Shown here: positions 18,170-31,519 of the stretch, piece by piece | How the letters are laid out: each line of letters opens with the position of its first letter | Numbering within the stretch: the stretch's first letter is position 1 | Source of the DNA: Desulfatiglandales bacterium | Lineage (GTDB): Bacteria > Desulfobacterota > DSM-4660 > Desulfatiglandales > Desulfatiglandaceae | Assembly (NCBI GenBank): GCA_963662465.1 | Contig: OY759599.1 | Span: 6,560,001 to 6,624,000 of the forward strand | Direction: 5' to 3' | Length of the DNA stretch: 64,000 bases | The notes under the pieces: model-generated | Told to the model about the DNA's origin: nothing | The model's database searches: none | What the model saw: the letters and a program-made list of their open reading frames with translations, nothing else | Made by a program: the position numbers and the translations under genes

Positions 18170-18227
18170 GGGTATATTCTCAATTTATGTCAGATTTACC
18201 CAATCCTACCGGTTTGATGATATCACA
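18170..18227 (+). other. Left cassette boundary site (CTCAAT core plus inner TGATGATATCACA motif)
   Basis: GGGTATATT-CTCAAT-TTATGTCA-N22-TGATGATATCACA; mirrored at 20578-20635. Confidence 0.6.
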
Positions 18228-18353
18228 CATTTCCATACCACCCTTATTTTCGAATTCCTTCCTAAAGTTTTTTTCTGAACTGCCGATTAATGATTCATGT
18301 ATATCAAAATTCATATTTATTTTCTTTGTTCTAAAATTGTAGGGAGCTGGACC

Positions 18354-20459
18354 ATGAGAGTAAACTTGATATTATGTGTCATGCTGGCAATACTAATGCT
18401 AGCAGGTTGCGGAAGTGAGAATTCCACTCAAAACAATCAGAATTCAGAAGAGACAACAACACTTGTAACGGAAGCAATGCTGGCTCAAGACGATTCACTT
18501 CATATCAATGAATCCCACTACGTAATGCTGACAATCGAACCAGAACAGAGTATGGTTGACGAAACGGATCTTTCTGGCGCAGGCATAGACTGTTATGACT
18601 TTACGGTGACGCAAGAGATAATAACAACGCTGCATATTACAAGCCCAAACGGAAAGTTCACCAACGCACTTTATGAAGAGGGCCGCTCAGATGCCCTGGT
18701 TGAAGCTTCTGAAGGGATAGAGTCCGTTACCGTCACACTGGTCCCGAATAAGACCTATAAACATTGCATTAAAAACAACAGCACTGACACACAGTCTTTG
18801 ACAAGTTTTTTTGAGTTGGCATCAAGTTCATCGACATCCCCAATGTCAAGTTCACTAGCATCAAATGATACGCAAGATCAACCCAGGCTAACTGCCACAA
18901 ATTCAATCGACTGTTCAAAACAGCATAACCTCAATTATGCCGGGCAAAATTATACAGGACATAATTTTGCCAATTTTGAAATAAAGCATTGTAGCTTCAA
19001 CAATACCATATTGGATGATGCAAGCTTTATGAATACTTCGCTTGAATATAATGACTTTACAGGTGCGTCTTTTGTGGGAGCTGATTTTACGAATTGGAAT
19101 ATTAACGACAATGTGTTCAAAAAGAACAATTTTTCAGGAGCTAAAAACTATAATCAGGGCTATTATTGTCAAGCTGATTCTCCCATTGATAAGTGTAATT
19201 CGACGGTATTCACAATTCAAAATCTTACGGATCTTATAGAGAAAAAAGAATGCCCTGCAGACTACCCTTCATGTAACTTCTCAGGAGCATACATTAACAA
19301 TAAAAATTTTAATTATGCTGATTTAAAAACAATCAACCTATCTTTTGCTATTATTAAAAATTCAACTTTTAGAAGTTCAGATTTAAGCACAGCTAACTTT
19401 TGGGGTGCTACAATTAAAAATGACAACGATTCAGGTGATTCTTTTAAAGGCGCAAATTTGAGCCATGCAAAGTTGAATAATGCTACAATTTCAAATATTG
19501 ATATGTCAGGAGCTGATATGAGTTTTGCAGATTTAACCGGTATTAAATTTGAAAACACATGGTTAAGCGGTGTTTTGTATAATGATGGAACGTATTGTGA
19601 AAATGGTTCAAACGATACCTGTAAACCAGCAGATTATTCAGCTCAAGAAGTTCAGCACCTTTTGTCATATAAACAGTGTCCACCTTCCAATGCAGGATGT
19701 CGCTTTCCCTTACTATTTATCATCGATAAAGATTTAAGTGGCATTGATTTCAGTAACGCAGATTTAAGAGGGAGTTGGTTTGAAAATGTAGATTTTACTA
19801 ACATGAATTATATGGGTGCAATGATAGAAAATGTCGGTTGGGGAGCTGATTGCATCTTTAACGGAGCAACAGACTATCATGGAAAATATTGTATGGCAAA
19901 TTCAATAGGGGGTTGTCACCCTGCTTCTTATACAGCAGCAGCTGTTCAAGAGTTAATAAGCACTCAGTCTGCTAAAGCAGGGTCCGATTTTACCGGTGTT
20001 TATTTGTCGGGAGAAAAATTTTGGAAGGGTGTTTTCGATAATGTCGTGTTCAATGAAGCAGACTTTTCCAATGCTACAATAGAAGATACTTCCATGAGAG
20101 ATTCTCAATTTGAGAATGCTACTTTTCATGGTGCTACCATCGCACTCGTTGATTTTTCATACTCGCAATTTCCAGGTGCCGATTTTTCTAATGCGATATT
20201 TGATAACCAAACCAGTTTTAAAAATGCTGTATTTGATAAAGTAAATTTTCAAAATGCAGATTTTATAAACGTACTTCTTGATGGCGCCGCTTTTAACGAG
20301 TCTGATTTCAGTTACAGTACTGTTAATGTGGCGGAACTCTTATCGAATTCGCAGATTTCCGGAAAGACAACCATGCCCAATGGCACAGTTTGTGATGGGC
20401 TGGCTGAATGTATCAAAGTATGCACGTCTGCAAATAACTACTGTGAATGGCATCCATAA
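18354..20459 (+). CDS. Pentapeptide-repeat lipoprotein with Cys-capped repeat modules
   Basis: RBS agggag, lipobox LAGC, four A(D/N)(F/L)xx repeat blocks each closed by a G..C....C cap; AT-rich. Confidence 0.85.
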   Translation: MRVNLILCVMLAILMLAGCGSENSTQNNQNSEETTTLVTEAMLAQDDSLHINESHYVMLTIEPEQSMVDETDLSGAGIDCYDFTVTQEIITTLHITSPNGKFTNALYEEGRSDALVEASEGIESVTVTLVPNKTYKHCIKNNSTDTQSLTSFFELASSSSTSPMSSSLASNDTQDQPRLTATNSIDCSKQHNLNYAGQNYTGHNFANFEIKHCSFNNTILDDASFMNTSLEYNDFTGASFVGADFTNWNINDNVFKKNNFSGAKNYNQGYYCQADSPIDKCNSTVFTIQNLTDLIEKKECPADYPSCNFSGAYINNKNFNYADLKTINLSFAIIKNSTFRSSDLSTANFWGATIKNDNDSGDSFKGANLSHAKLNNATISNIDMSGADMSFADLTGIKFENTWLSGVLYNDGTYCENGSNDTCKPADYSAQEVQHLLSYKQCPPSNAGCRFPLLFIIDKDLSGIDFSNADLRGSWFENVDFTNMNYMGAMIENVGWGADCIFNGATDYHGKYCMANSIGGCHPASYTAAAVQELISTQSAKAGSDFTGVYLSGEKFWKGVFDNVVFNEADFSNATIEDTSMRDSQFENATFHGATIALVDFSYSQFPGADFSNAIFDNQTSFKNAVFDKVNFQNADFINVLLDGAAFNESDFSYSTVNVAELLSNSQISGKTTMPNGTVCDGLAECIKVCTSANNYCEWHP

Positions 20460-20616
20460 AAATATTGTATTCGAGTTTGCAGTATCAATAATTCCCCTTG
20501 TGCGATGCACTGCATAATAATCTAAGTCGCAACATAGCTCTTGACAAAGGTGAAACAATTGATTCAGGCAAAACGCCTGTGATATCATCATGCCTGAACG
20601 CGTGCTGAGCGTTGAC

Positions 20617-29428: not shown

Positions 29429-30985
29429 ATGAAAAGGGAATTCATGGTCTTGGTTTTATTGGTGCCTTTGGTTGTTTTTACGGGAACAGGTTTTTCCAAA
29501 GATCCAGTAGACATCTTTACAATGGACACCTCCGTAAAGATTGAAACCGTTGCTGCCACCGTAACGGACCCTATTGAAGGGACTGAGGGAGGAATAACGC
29601 CCCAAGGCGATGAAGGGACAAAGAACACCATTTACGGACAATATGCGGGAGATAGCCTGACTTCTGACGCGGAGAAGAACACCCTTATTGGCGTGGCAGC
29701 TGGATCGGAACTCACTAACGGAGATTTCAACACCCTCGTTGGACACTATGCGGGATACGTTCTTACAACACAAACGAACAACACTTTCGTGGGAGGCACC
29801 GCAGGAAGAGGTGCAACCGGAAGCTCCAATACCTACATCGGCTACGCCGCAGGATATAAAGATTCCTATCCCTATGCGAATAGTGGTTCCGGAAATACCT
29901 TTGTGGGATGTGAGGCAGGCACGTTAAACGCAAGCGGTTACAACAACACTTTCGTGGGAAAGGATGCCGGAAAGGCAAACTTTACAGGAAAATGGAATAC
30001 TTTCATTGGCCGTGCAGCAGGGCAGGCCAATACCTCGGCAGATTCCAACACCTTTCTGGGAGACGGCGCTGGAATGGCCAACACCACTGGGCACCACAAT
30101 ACCTTCTTGGGGGACGCTGCCGGAATTACCAATCTCGACGGCCATTCCAATATTTATATTGGAGATGATGCAGGATACAAGAACAAATCAGGCTCTGACA
30201 ATATTTTTGTCGGTCGAAGCTCAGGTTATACAACTAACGAAGGTGAGAAGAACGTCTTTTTAGGTGGCAATGCCGGATACAATAACAGCAATGGCAGTTT
30301 TAACGTTTTCGTGGGATATGAAGCAGGCAAAGAAAACGATGGGGGACAAATTAATTCTTTCTTTGGAATAAAAGCGGGATACAAAACCATCGGAGGATCG
30401 TCAAATACCTTTGTCGGTGGCTATGCTGGATACAACAATACTGACGGTATGCGCAACGTTTTTATCGGAAGAGATGCAGGGCGTAATCAAAATGAATCAG
30501 ATAAACTTTTTATTGACAATTCAAGCGTTGCCACACCGCTTATCTGGGGAGATTTTAGCACCAATAACGTGGTGATCTACGGTGGCTTTAGGTCCATTGC
30601 CAGTTACACCTCTTCAGACAAACGGTGGAAGAAGAATATCCAACCGTTGGAATCATCCTTGGACAAAATAACCAGCCTTCAGGGCGTGAGCTATAAGTGG
30701 AAAACTGGCGAATATCCCGATATGGGAATGACGGAACGCAAACAAATCGGCCTGGTTGCACAGGACGTTGAAAAAGAGCTGCCTGAGTTGGTGTCCGAAG
30801 ACAAGAACGGATACAAAGCGGTATCTTACACCAAACTGACCGCTGTTCTCGTTGAAGCGGTAAAGGAATTAAAGGCTGAAAATCAGAGCCAGAAAAAACT
30901 TATAGAGGAGCAACGCAATCAATTTACGAAACAACAATCCGAAATTGAAGAATTACGTTCGATGTTAAAGGAATTGAAAAGCTGA
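29429..30985 (+). CDS. Secreted NTFxGxxAG-repeat protein with C-terminal peptidase S74 domain
   Basis: RBS ggagg; signal peptide; many ~14-aa N(T/V)FxGxxAG repeats; SDKRWKKNI, IGLVAQDVE, LVEAVKEL. Confidence 0.88.
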   Translation: MKREFMVLVLLVPLVVFTGTGFSKDPVDIFTMDTSVKIETVAATVTDPIEGTEGGITPQGDEGTKNTIYGQYAGDSLTSDAEKNTLIGVAAGSELTNGDFNTLVGHYAGYVLTTQTNNTFVGGTAGRGATGSSNTYIGYAAGYKDSYPYANSGSGNTFVGCEAGTLNASGYNNTFVGKDAGKANFTGKWNTFIGRAAGQANTSADSNTFLGDGAGMANTTGHHNTFLGDAAGITNLDGHSNIYIGDDAGYKNKSGSDNIFVGRSSGYTTNEGEKNVFLGGNAGYNNSNGSFNVFVGYEAGKENDGGQINSFFGIKAGYKTIGGSSNTFVGGYAGYNNTDGMRNVFIGRDAGRNQNESDKLFIDNSSVATPLIWGDFSTNNVVIYGGFRSIASYTSSDKRWKKNIQPLESSLDKITSLQGVSYKWKTGEYPDMGMTERKQIGLVAQDVEKELPELVSEDKNGYKAVSYTKLTAVLVEAVKELKAENQSQKKLIEEQRNQFTKQQSEIEELRSMLKELKS

Positions 30986-31277
30986 AGCTATTTAGTCAGA
31001 AGAGGAACCAATATGGGGAGGGACGATTACGGATTACACGGTCCTTTTGACGGCAGGATTGGCCTGTCGCCAATTAAGTAAAATCGTCAGGTGGCTTCTG
31101 GCACGGGGTCACCACCTCCCCACCAGTTTTGTTTATTGCAAAATGCTGTTCGGTCGGAATTGATATCCTGCACAATTTCTTGCAACCGAATGGTTGTGAT
31201 ATCATCACTGGGAGGGGGCGGTCTGACGGTTGAGAAATGCATGAAACTGGCCGTTTTTTGGGTTGCATAAGTTGGGT

Positions 31278-31519
31278 ATATCTCCAACGTACCACAATCA
31301 AAGAGGACGTTGTGATATGAGCCACATATTGCATCCGGTCCGTATTTGAAAACCGCTTTCGACAAATGTTTGAGACCCCTACATCTTGTGGTCGAGCCCT
31401 TTTCAGATTGTTAATTCAAAAGTGAAGGTATCCTATATCATTCTTCTGTTGGGCTTGGAGCCCGGATGCGTGAAAAAAGCAGCCCCCTGGCACGATTTTT
31501 TTGCTTCAGCATGGAGAAG
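31278..31519 (+). repeat. About 240-bp non-coding direct repeat, copy 2 (starts at the right-boundary core CTCCAA, 31282-31287)
   Basis: Similar to 20617-20858. Confidence 0.9.

Follow-up and report, generated by a model that had tools for sequence, protein, structure and literature searches.

The window analysed here, a 64,000-nucleotide stretch of a Desulfatiglandales genome, appears from its sequence to carry at 18.0–31.5 kb (~14 kb) a row of unrelated gene modules parted by two kinds of short recombination-type site, L and R. Because the modules are unrelated and the two site kinds recur genome-wide, the array looks like a gene-shuffling platform, akin to integrons and Acinetobacter dif modules but with other sites. 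We give even chances to the fuller reading, in which it is one of about 13 arrays of alternating modules in this genome, parted by heterospecific L and R sites. The enzyme serving the array is probably a small Xer-like one, encoded outside the window. No description of such arrays was found in the published literature. The features are as follows, with + for the plus strand:

18012..18178, +, pre-L module, forming the right side of a junction and ending in outer arm GGGTATATT; ~9 genome matches
18170..18193, +, L site 1, GGGTATATT-CTCAAT-TTATGTCAG, core 18179-18184; 21.5 bits
18185..20620, +, L-to-R module A, with a pentapeptide-repeat protein gene at 18297-20459 (Pfam)
18215-18227 and 20579-20591, inverted sub-terminal arm-like motifs of module A (inverted repeat I1/I2)
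20612..20635, +, R site 1, TTGACATAT-CTCCAA-CGTACCACA, core 20621-20626; 20.5 bits
20627..20876, +, M_R module copy 1, 85% identical to 31278-31519
~20650-20669, arm-spacer-arm palindrome TGTGATATG-CGCCA-CATATT within M_R copy 1
21033..22184, +, 383-aa gene filling the R-to-L slot where other arrays have the recombinase; no match in Pfam, NCBIfam or PADLOC
22365..22847, +, 483-bp non-coding miniature RIT-type element, copy 1; left flank TGATAT, not CTCAAT
22839..22862, +, L-type junction ACAACATAA (element end)-CTCAAT-CTATCACAG (module B start)
22854..25257, +, L-to-R module B, with a 7TMR-DISM/GGDEF gene at 23343-25178 (Pfam)
22847-22997, 5' module of module B, with further copies elsewhere in the genome and among relatives
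25249..25310, +, minimal junction: R site 2 (TTCCAA, 25258-25263), 32-bp linker and L site (25296-25301)
25302..26655, +, L-to-R module C, with a beta-helix (pectinesterase-like) gene at 25415-26455 on the minus strand, called from a Pfam match below cut-off
25296-25394, 5' module of module C; about 14 copies in the genome
26647..26699, +, R site 3 (CTCCGA, 26656-26661), 32-bp linker and native-L outer half TGTGGTATT-CTCAAT
26700..27182, +, 483-bp miniature RIT-type element, copy 2, lodged within the native L site and flanked on either side by CTCAAT
27183..27197, +, second CTCAAT and inner half ATATACTCA of the split native L site
27189..31281, +, L-to-R module D, with two Peptidase_S74 proteins at 27536-29119 and 29414-30985 (Pfam)
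27183-27413 and 31006-31281, 5' and 3' modules of module D, both repeat families
31273..31296, +, R site 4, TGGGTATAT-CTCCAA-CGTACCACA, core 31282-31287; 25.7 bits
31288..31537, +, M_R module copy 2, with palindrome at ~31311-31329 and no recombinase after it

All nine sites listed in the first-pass annotation are present where it placed them, with the arms and cores that it quoted. The arms are mutually inverted as described, TGTGGTA and TACCACA, like ATATACCCA and TGGGTATAT, being reverse complements, and inverted arms of ~10 bp around an asymmetric 6-bp core are the core-site geometry of tyrosine recombinases. Genome-wide, the L class follows the consensus GGRATAYT-CTCAAT-NTAT.. and the R class ..ATAT-CTCCAA-CRTA..; the core is CTCAAT in 21/21 L seed sites and CTCCAA in 22 of the 24 R seed sites. 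Read outward, the four arm classes of these 21 L and 24 R seed sites share one xTAT/ATAT..C.CAG-like consensus. The two cores are identical at only 4/6 positions and thus L and R would be heterospecific; for the same reason canonical excision of an L..R unit is unlikely. Profile searches of the genome, which the first-pass annotation had proposed in the form of weight matrices, returned, at a threshold of 12 bits, 21 L sites and 30 R sites, and CAACATAACTCAAT ends added eight, for a total of 59. Thirteen clusters contain 52 of these, of which 51 lie on the strand of their cluster. A 15-mer L pattern has 15 matches in the genome and a 14-mer R pattern 16, while the same patterns read backwards have none. 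Within the window, WCTCAATNTAT occurs six times (five in the array), always on the plus strand, against 0.18 expected, and ATYTCCRACRTA four times against 0.04; none of 100 shuffles reached either count, a test that is post hoc because the patterns were derived from the sites themselves.

The sites also mark breakpoints, as had been suggested for cargo shared with other loci: paralogous and orthologous homology stops at the cores. Among 166 non-self BLAST matches between window positions 17000-33000 and the genome, at least three match ends lie within ~10 nt of seven of the nine sites; sites 25258 and 26656 have just two and one, respectively. Seven matches begin at 20617-20627 (R site 1), eight end at 31288-31293 and five start at 31274-31288 (R site 4), and the homology of pre-L, shared with about nine other genome copies, stops at 18188-18190. 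A paralogue of module B at genome 2107359 begins at its own CTCAAT core. Rather than L..R cassettes complete in themselves, the units are better read as L-to-R modules alternating with R-to-L modules.

The short sites sit inside longer conserved modules: pre-L, the 5' module, the 3' module and M_R, a conserved stretch of ~250 bp right after the R site. M_R of the window is homologous to nt 50–300 past the recombinase stop codon in other arrays. What fills the R-to-L slot varies from a 32-bp linker, ~238 bp or ~430 bp to the 383-aa gene or a recombinase with an HU-like gene; the composite of R, 32-bp linker and L repeats at 26647-26708, at genome 2107300, 6239527 and 7889796, and in the related genome G004 (L019 4807-4868). 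Modules measure 1.4–7.8 kb, with at most three genes and long non-coding flanks, and gene direction agrees with site polarity in 10 of 13. Their cargo across arrays comprises signalling proteins, peptidases and serine hydrolases as well as surface proteins, so the earlier restriction to surface proteins does not stand.

The array is accessory. At the orthologous locus of a genome of the same genus (G010), both flanks are kept at 92–93% identity and 2.3 kb stand in place of window positions 17261-38547; relative to that genome the array is an insertion. Module A occurs there at another place as a 94% identical copy that diverges right after CTCCAAC. Cargo modules yielded no visible recombination product; the public runs were covered as contigs, whose joints follow other repeat copies.

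The first-pass annotation held that the window encodes no recombinase and that the enzyme acts in trans. Both points were borne out: none of 58 PF00589 matches falls in the window, and tblastn with the recombinase described below found nothing there. The genome itself does have a candidate, whose gene lies in three other arrays. This 263-aa Xer-like tyrosine recombinase, composed of core-binding and catalytic domains only, is by its position the most likely catalyst, its link to the arrays being one of adjacency. Its three full copies (3705894, 3847331 and 4499514; 95–100% identical) each lie within the R-to-L module of another array, between M_R and pre-L, with an R site ~300 nt 3' of the stop codon; at loci L001 and L004, pre-L has the recombinase/HU pair on one side and the L site on the other. 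The motifs RGGMRVGE, HDLRRH, LRH and TTQxYLG, which surround the positions where catalytic Arg, His and Tyr are expected, are invariant, as read by eye, in six of six aligned homologues. The protein falls under every NCBIfam cut-off (integrase_gron, 38 bits against 265), and its closest solved relative by sequence is 4a8e_A, a ‘probable tyrosine recombinase XerC-like’ (E 1.5e-16).

Species genomes contain 300 relatives of the family, the majority in records with Desulfobacterota in the title. G004 has a 61% identical recombinase with an R site 104 nt 3' of the stop at both its loci, and in G005 the gene has an L site 2.3 kb upstream, with relative orientation unchanged; within 420 nt downstream, no R-like site was found in G005 or G015. 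The L/R profiles match at only 5 of 79 related loci of other taxa, no motif common to the recombinase downstream regions across taxa was found, and the HU-like neighbour is present at 0 of 73 related loci. A direct repeat with one copy within ~200 nt downstream of the gene occurs at 5 of 34 loci of at least 12 kb. Among the three copies, identity is only 71–75% in M_R and drops no more than modestly at R, to 59–63% past the core. As these copies are recent duplicates they count as one observation, and likewise the two of G004.

We infer the acting enzyme, the reacting site pairs and the present-day activity of the system, for which the following scheme is proposed. The recombinase would act on pairs of like sites, L x L or R x R. 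When two arrays or replicons take part, an L x L crossover and then an R x R crossover would swap the intervening module; within one array, either pairing would excise a circle of one L-to-R and one R-to-L module, and this circle could be reinserted wherever a site of its class is present. The window array may be served in trans by the 263-aa recombinase, since its gene lies in R-to-L modules of three other arrays. Separately from this scheme, RIT-type elements and a 483-bp miniature land at L sites.

This 483-bp element, present in five genome copies of 97.5–99.8% identity, is a gene-less miniature of RIT-type elements, with which it shares its termini. It is flanked on the right by CTCAAT in 5/5 copies and on the left by TGATAT in one. 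In elements of 8.3 kb and 4.8 kb with matching ends, tyrosine recombinase genes stand in runs of three, all in one direction. In a duplicated segment with near-identical flanks, the L site at 3494320 is empty and its counterpart at 3424181 holds the 483-bp element, and the 8.3-kb element occupies another L site, so L sites are real insertion points. Such landings account for three of the nine sites first listed: those at 22848, 26694 (right arm) and 27183 (left arm) are termini of the RIT-type miniature and do not border cassettes of the array proper.

Could RIT-type recombinases themselves (a 347-aa protein and its trio partners) build and move the arrays, the cargo modules being non-autonomous RIT relatives that pile up at L sites? 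The only insertions demonstrably and precisely at L sites have RIT-type ends (four of five copies of the 483-bp element and two of four RIT-type elements), and RIT elements encode recombinases of their own; the ends of module A, TTATGTCAG.. and ..TTGACATAT, resemble the RIT ends TTATGTTG.. and ..CAACATAA; two arrays, at 280 kb and 2.86 Mb, have RIT-type recombinase genes inside or next to them; and G010 (92% complete) has six site-pattern matches, module A and a 347-aa homologue, with no 263-aa recombinase at E 1e-30. However, RIT-type elements also sit between unrelated 6-bp flanks (TGCAAG/TGAAAG, GGTCAG) without L-type arms, no R site or CTCCAA core was found at their ends, and G011 and G015 combine L patterns and the 263-aa recombinase with no 347-aa homologue at E 1e-40. 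The available text of PMC10214605 and PMC3414803 moreover describes RIT mobility and target choice as untested. We regard this explanation as unlikely.

It is decidedly unlikely that no dedicated recombination is involved and that the motifs and modules are promoter, leader and terminator blocks of accessory paralogues, spread by duplication and gene conversion. The conserved blocks, at 100–280 bp, are indeed far longer than the core site, the 3' modules finish with hairpin and T-run motifs, and the outer L arm, taken together with the T-run upstream of it, is promoter-like (TTCAGA-17-TATATT, 18150-18178). Promoter-like matches in the region are nevertheless without clear enrichment (37 against 29.6, sd 5.1), and in module C and two other modules the 5' module keeps to the L side although the gene is inverted. 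Regulatory blocks would also leave unexplained the inverted arms with an invariant asymmetric core, the strict co-orientation, the precise insertion within the core and the nesting of a recombinase gene at one fixed place in the junction.

Action of the host XerC/XerD on the sites, as at Acinetobacter pdif, with the 263-aa gene a mere passenger, seems very improbable. It would fit the arm-6 bp-arm geometry, the inner bases of RIT-type ends (..ATAA-N6-TTAT..), which resemble pdif sites such as ATTTCGTATAA-CGTGTA-TTATGTTAATT in Table 1 of PMC13141974, as far as that source was available, and the presence at 6166190 and 3930614 of Xer-sized recombinases that score strongly against PF00589. The four arm classes nonetheless share one consensus rather than separate XerC and XerD halves, the sites are co-oriented, not alternating, a search of the genome for a chromosomal dif site identified none for comparison, and the junction itself contains a dedicated Xer-like gene.

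We give very little credence to the sites being divergent attC and the array a CALIN (an integrase-less attC cluster) served by the integron integrases of the genome (matches at 3287735 and 4425759). On the minus strand the R site, as GTTGGAG, fits 6/7 positions of GTTRRRY, and in one R class an inverted partner 16 nt further on gives a hairpin of about 40 nt, but no other R class has it, its length is to our knowledge below that of any known attC, L sites read ATTGAGA on the minus strand without a G before TT, two integron regions reported earlier for this genome hold no L/R profile match of 12 bits or more, and the modules are large, containing as many as three genes beside long non-coding flanks.

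The reading preferred here, alternating modules between heterospecific sites, can be set beside known systems. For the 483-bp element, and not the whole array, the comparison is with RIT and Tn554-type elements. The 8.3-kb and 4.8-kb elements resemble RIT elements in their three co-directional tyrosine recombinase genes (PMC3414803, PMC10214605). The available portions of these sources treat RIT ends and targets as poorly defined and mobility as untested, whereas here the ends, 6-bp flanks, an empty site and a gene-less derivative can be read. Tn554 and strand-biased circularizing integrative elements are moved by tyrosine recombinases and have imperfect terminal inverted repeats; their joined ends contain a 6-bp spacer, and they bring along 6 bp from the previous site (PMC10214605, from the text available). 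For the 483-bp element, such carriage would explain CTCAAT on the right of all copies and TGATAT on the left of one.

Like integrons and integrase-less attC clusters, the arrays consist of co-oriented, unrelated accessory genes punctuated by a repeated recombination site; as in integrons, the tyrosine recombinase is Xer-related, some arrays have none of their own and other mobile elements home to the sites. As had been claimed, the array is not a classical integron: by the integrase_gron score no IntI-type integrase is associated with the arrays, the sites are of double-strand type, with inverted arms and a 6-bp core and no long attC hairpins, two site classes alternate, the large modules may hold several or inverted genes and have their own long non-coding flanks, and the recombinase is nested in a junction, not at the array head. 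In the available text of PMC13141974, Acinetobacter Rep_3/OrfX plasmids carry dif modules bounded by pdif sites on which XerC/XerD act; two module types must alternate, an adjacent pair is excisable, and a single module is replaceable via one crossover per side, features shared with the scheme proposed here. Discrete modules, some without ORFs, between short sites of arm, 6-bp spacer and arm are common to both systems. Compared with what that source describes, the present sites are co-oriented and their classes differ by spacer (CTCAAT or CTCCAA), not by C/D or D/C orientation; the arms form one consensus and are not divided into a XerC half and a XerD half; the arrays lie on a chromosome and in a different phylum; and a 263-aa Xer-like gene lies within a module, with long conserved blocks flanking the cores.

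The nine sites that the first-pass annotation had read as borders of gene cassettes were all recovered as written (9/9), and site profiles run over the 8.16-Mb genome revealed a genome-wide family instead of isolated motifs. At a threshold of at least 12 bits, scans and profiles yield 21 L sites, whose core is CTCAAT in 21/21 seeds, and 30 R sites, whose core is CTCCAA in 22/24 seeds. One consensus, read outward from the core, is common to all four arm classes (xTAT/ATAT, then a C-rich stretch, often with CAG at positions 8–10), so each site measures ~10 + 6 + 10 bp, its arms being inverted and its core asymmetric; the outer arm begins one base further from the core than the inner arm. 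Inverted arms around a core are the layout of simple tyrosine-recombinase sites such as those of Cre, Flp and Xer, and, by analogy with these and with the description of pdif in PMC13141974, the L and R sites would belong to the same class. Because the two cores agree at only 4/6 positions, L and R are treated as putatively heterospecific.

That such sites might be no commoner than chance had been named as one way to refute the reading. Two patterns derived post hoc from the sites themselves match the window 6 times against 0.18 expected and 4 times against 0.04. In the genome, a 15-mer L pattern has 15 matches and a 14-mer R pattern 16, and neither has any when read backwards. With 8 additional CAACATAACTCAAT ends included, the sites number 59, of which 52 fall in 13 clusters, and 51 of the 52 clustered sites lie on the strand of their own cluster, the single exception being an inverted end of a recombinase-in-trio (RIT)-type element. 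At that place (locus L006, positions 5903 and 15490; genome 2861922 and 2871490) the two ends of an RIT-type element, inverted, face each other ~9.6 kb apart, an arrangement expected if recombination between inverted sites had turned a segment around. Ends of BLAST matches cluster at 7/9 window sites.

Additional arm-like sequences accompany the sites. By eye, a third arm-spacer-arm palindrome (e.g. TTGACATATG-AGCCA-CATATGTCAA) lies 25–45 nt past ~12/30 R sites, and sub-terminal half-arms, TGTGATATC and GATATCACA, occur just inside both module ends. At the window junctions 25258–25275 and 26656–26673, both with a 32-bp linker, an inverted copy of the R core follows after 5 nt (TCCAA-CATAT-TTGGA); in one other R class, arm and core recur inverted 16 nt downstream. 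Palindromes of the form CTTTGCATAA-N6-TTATGCAAAG (genome 292775, 3215931, 3338491, 3346627, 3350311, 4989436 and 6842821) are possibly another family of recombination sites.

Every window site borders longer non-coding blocks, which recur at ~20 places according to repeat finding and BLAST over the whole genome, and most of the intervening genes are unique in the genome.

Conserved blocks bordering the sites
Window 18012–18178: pre-L block, before an L site
Window 25296–25394, 27183–27413 and 22847–22997: 5' block, just inside L sites
Window 31006–31281: 3' block, just inside R sites
Window 20627–20876 and 31288–31537: M_R block, ~250 bp, after R sites
Locus L018 of the related genome G010: ~430-bp junction composed of R, M_R, pre-L and L

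Arrays run in the order L, cargo, R, junction, L, cargo, R, repeating. Their R-to-L junctions may be a conserved linker of 32 bp (two cases in the window, others elsewhere in the genome and in the related genome G004), ~238 bp, ~430 bp, or gene-bearing kilobases. The window junction 20621–22848 carries a 383-aa gene without known family, whose ORF contains two tandem 81-bp units, 73% identical (21341–21502). These forms, the gene-bearing ones included, indicate that L-to-R and R-to-L intervals are both cargo slots. Window cargo consists of a pentapeptide-repeat protein, a 7TMR-DISM/GGDEF protein, a beta-helix protein and two Peptidase_S74 proteins; the arrays examined also carry Ig-like/PKD/M23, CHAP, caspase-like and NHL-repeat proteins, more S74 proteins, a kinase/regulator/TIR set and beta-lactamase-fold hydrolases. 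Modules measure 1.1–7.8 kb with 1–3 genes each, and the cargo is co-oriented with the sites in 10/13 (the window's 4 and 9 others). Neither NCBIfam nor PADLOC matches the small ORFs at the array's left edge (17496–18070), the 383-aa gene or a 134-aa ORF (32412–32816), and searching window 16000–34000 for known RNA families gave two matches only, both at chance level.

Comparison with G010, a genome of the same genus that is 92% complete, shows the array to be accessory. Its flanks are syntenic, window 14976–17260 and 38548–50252 matching at 91–94%, and the distance between them is 2.3 kb in G010 versus 21.3 kb in G000, the genome of the window. A ~200-bp repeat marks the left edge of the variable region (17264–17470); it matches ~39 places in the genome, among them a tandem run of roughly 14 units at 1480060–1483048. 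The variable region missing from the G010 locus further includes a fusion of an ECF-type sigma factor (regions 2 and 4) with an NMT1-like periplasmic-binding-type domain (36847–38247), with adjoining HPP and molybdopterin oxidoreductase genes. One module has been relocated: module A with its pre-L block (18018–20627) has a 94% identical copy elsewhere in G010, where the match ends directly past CTCCAAC and the L core is four bases short. The same cargo at another locus with its breakpoint at a core is what the first-pass annotation had proposed to look for.

Module B (22854–25257) has a paralogue at genome 2107359 that starts with its own R-linker-L junction and L core. The sensor half of the 7TMR-DISM/GGDEF protein (window 23343–24665) is 96% identical in DNA to genome 2107498–2108820; the C-terminal half of the paralogue is a histidine-kinase-like region, the output domain having been swapped behind a common sensor.

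Among 10 other genomes of the genus, the L pattern is found in 6 and the R pattern in 6; outside the genus both are sparser, with single matches near control level. The L and R sites are genus-specific, and they therefore do not probe the wider recombinase family. Runs holding the stretch, two of which probably derive from the source sample, were examined as Logan contigs; these are interrupted at the repeat modules and their joints follow other genomic copies, so circles and deletions are not callable from them. One contig from X1, an unrelated metagenome run, joins a 3' module to a 5' module via ATATT-CTCAAT-ATATGTCAA; it may stem from another organism and is not counted as evidence.

The L core is also a target of true insertions. 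A non-coding 483-bp element with inverted ends, TTATGTTGCG.. and ..CACAACATAA, is present in two window copies (22365–22847 and 26700–27182) and five in the genome, 97.5–99.8% identical. CTCAAT stands to its right in 5/5 copies and to its left in 4/5, copy 22365 having TGATAT there. Within a duplicated segment the same L site is found empty (3494320) and filled by this element (3424181), with one mismatch over ~140 aligned bases in the left flank and identity over ~60 bases in the right. In the window, 26694 and 27183 are a single native L site split by the element. The reading of all nine sites as cassette borders is thus to be amended: the ends of the 483-bp element make up 22848, the right arm at 26694 and the left arm at 27183. 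The constant right CTCAAT together with one deviant left flank would fit transport of a 6-bp sequence from the previous site, a behaviour described for Tn554 and SE elements in PMC10214605. A transposase-driven IS or MITE was rejected, as the flanks of the 483-bp element are constant and not copy-variable and it has no associated transposase. The IS200/IS605-type transposase gene (143 bits) in locus L001 at 14256–14765 (genome 3848256–3848765), located between one copy of the 263-aa recombinase described below and an HU-like gene, is a separate insertion.

Both 483-bp termini align with the termini of larger elements carrying runs of tyrosine recombinase genes. These full-length relatives have ends TTATGTTG.. 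and ..CAACATAA, of which the 483-bp element retains the two termini only, and contain three adjacent co-directional tyrosine recombinase genes within terminal inverted repeats; they fit recombinase-in-trio elements.

RIT-type elements of the genome
Genome 3491256–3493973 and 282737–285204: recombinase trios, with more recombinase genes adjoining
Genome 3489355–3494165 (locus L106): 4.8-kb element with flanks TGCAAG and TGAAAG; its empty site lies in the duplicate near 3424300
Genome 280529–288829 (locus L105): 8.3-kb element in a native L site, TTTGGATACT-CTCAAT-[element]-CTCAAT-ATATACCCAG

Of the six tyrosine recombinase genes in the 8.3-kb element, three form a trio on one strand and the remaining three lie on the opposite strand. 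The excerpts of PMC3414803 and PMC10214605 describe RIT mobility and targets as untested; as a side finding, the ends of RIT elements become readable, and examples of a landing site, an unoccupied site and a non-autonomous derivative are provided.

None of the genome's 58 PF00589 matches falls in the window, in agreement with the earlier statement that no recombinase is encoded there. Elsewhere in G000, a 263-aa Xer-like recombinase is present in three full copies, 95–100% identical, plus remnants, all in accessory arrays. In all three full copies the gene lies within a junction, between M_R and pre-L, and is transcribed away from the L site, with a terminator-like hairpin after its stop codon and an R site ~300 nt beyond the stop. 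Both window M_R blocks align to nt 50–300 downstream of this stop codon, and are therefore the same junction without the recombinase gene. A sharp identity step at the R core among the three copies was considered and dropped, the step being modest; M_R is itself mosaic.

The 263-aa protein comprises core-binding and catalytic regions only, and the motifs at the expected catalytic Arg, His and Tyr are invariant in 6/6 homologues in an alignment read by eye. Its best score is to XerA_Arch, 116.5 bits (cut-off 220), followed by XerC at 58.2 (335) and XerD at 57.3 (330); it lies under every curated equivalog cut-off and was rejected as a XerA, XerC or XerD orthologue. The nearest solved relatives by sequence are 4a8e_A (‘probable tyrosine recombinase XerC-like’, E 1.5e-16) and the XerD chain 1a0p_A, and the enzyme fits the ‘simple’ tyrosine recombinases as outlined in excerpts of PMC8138268.

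In G004 (61% identity), an R site lies 104 nt past the stop in both recombinase copies, and in a second related genome, G005 (80% identity), an L site lies 2.3 kb upstream; no R site occurs within 420 nt downstream of the recombinase in G005 or in G015, a further relative. The family numbers 300 relatives in species genomes, most record titles naming Desulfobacterota. In 5/34 long loci, one copy of a direct repeat lies just downstream of the recombinase gene, and no 8-mer is common to more than 11/72 related loci downstream of the gene across taxa. ATA(YY)CTCAAT is found in 4/71 related recombinase loci versus 1/58 control windows, and the G000-trained L and R profiles match 5/79. At all three G000 copies a divergent HU/IHF-like gene (PF00216; L003 8821–9105, L004 13060–13374) adjoins the recombinase; it was dropped as a partner, being beside 0/73 related loci in other genomes.

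Because it occupies a constant position within the junction in two species, the 263-aa enzyme is ranked first as the most likely catalyst, a ranking based on adjacency in few independent instances. Second is the reading that RIT recombinases act on the sites, into whose L cores the elements with RIT-type ends have inserted; across 30 relatives the sites co-occur imperfectly with either recombinase, a comparison confounded by kinship and incomplete genomes. Third, the sites could be plain regulatory repeats involving no dedicated recombination, a reading that would be compatible with the long non-coding blocks around them. Host XerC and XerD acting on the sites rank fourth; the arms surround a 6-bp core, as at Acinetobacter pdif sites. 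A genome scan for chromosomal dif with CATAA-N6-TTATG gave 15 matches, none convincing. An IntI/attC system comes last. Against TIGR02249 (cut-off 265) and NF011946 (435) the 263-aa recombinase scores 38.3 and 22 bits, respectively, and it is shorter than the 315-position profile.

These observations have led us to propose a model whereby a recombinase would bind the arms, like other simple tyrosine recombinases, and exchange strands across the 6-bp core. Since the L and R cores differ, sites would pair within their own class. The long conserved blocks and extra copies of the arms may serve as accessory sites that set direction, a function of accessory sites at plasmid cer and psi and at the Tn4430 resolution site. 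Within one array, recombination of a like pair would free a circle of one L-to-R and one R-to-L module; between two arrays, one L x L plus one R x R event would exchange the intervening module. One crossover per side is the route proposed for replacement of a single dif module in the excerpts of PMC13141974.

We rate arrays of this kind as putative gene-module platforms based on site-specific recombination. The fuller proposal is tentative, and we hold it to be possible but somewhat improbable as a whole: a third, independent gene-capture platform beside integrons and dif modules, in Desulfobacterota and some other bacteria, made up of chromosomal arrays whose alternating modules are joined at double-strand core sites of two heterospecific kinds and served by a minimal, dedicated Xer-like recombinase whose gene is nested in one module, with paired L x L / R x R swaps and with RIT-type elements and their miniatures as parasites homing to the L site. 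If true, a simple recombinase on 26-bp sites trades accessory genes as modules in these large genomes, among them genes for large secreted proteins, signalling proteins and hydrolases, and the paired swaps would be a natural parallel to the engineered exchange of cassettes between heterospecific sites. Such platforms would be wholly invisible to integron-finding software, the evolution of heterospecific sites in site-specific recombination systems would become testable, and the small recombinase, its two target sites being readable and mutually exclusive, would be of interest for genome engineering.

The literature listings searched cover integrons, dif modules, and RIT, SE and GInt elements, and yielded no Xer-like cassette or module arrays in Desulfobacterota. 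Integron cassettes are short, mostly single-gene units moved by an integrase encoded beside them, whereas the modules here measure kilobases with up to three genes, the window holds no integrase, and other arrays nest the recombinase gene in a junction. An attC site is an imperfect palindrome with RYYYAAC ... GTTRRRY boxes and crossover at G/TT. The L core lacks GTT on both strands (minus strand ATTGAGA), and the R minus strand, GTTGGAG, agrees with 6/7 of GTTRRRY, with a ~40-nt hairpin partner in one R class only; our own attC scan (boxes plus DNA folding) returned 0–1 candidates per region, including in the integron regions used as positive controls, and so carries no weight either way. The dif modules of Acinetobacter (pdif/XerCD) share the arms around a 6-bp spacer. 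Their XerC and XerD half-sites, however, are distinct and their sites alternate in orientation, whereas here the arms follow one consensus and nearly all clustered sites are co-oriented. Recombination there is by host XerC/XerD; here a dedicated Xer-like gene embedded in junctions encodes the candidate enzyme. The alternating L-to-R and R-to-L slots nevertheless mirror the C and D modules of Acinetobacter as set out in the excerpts of PMC13141974.
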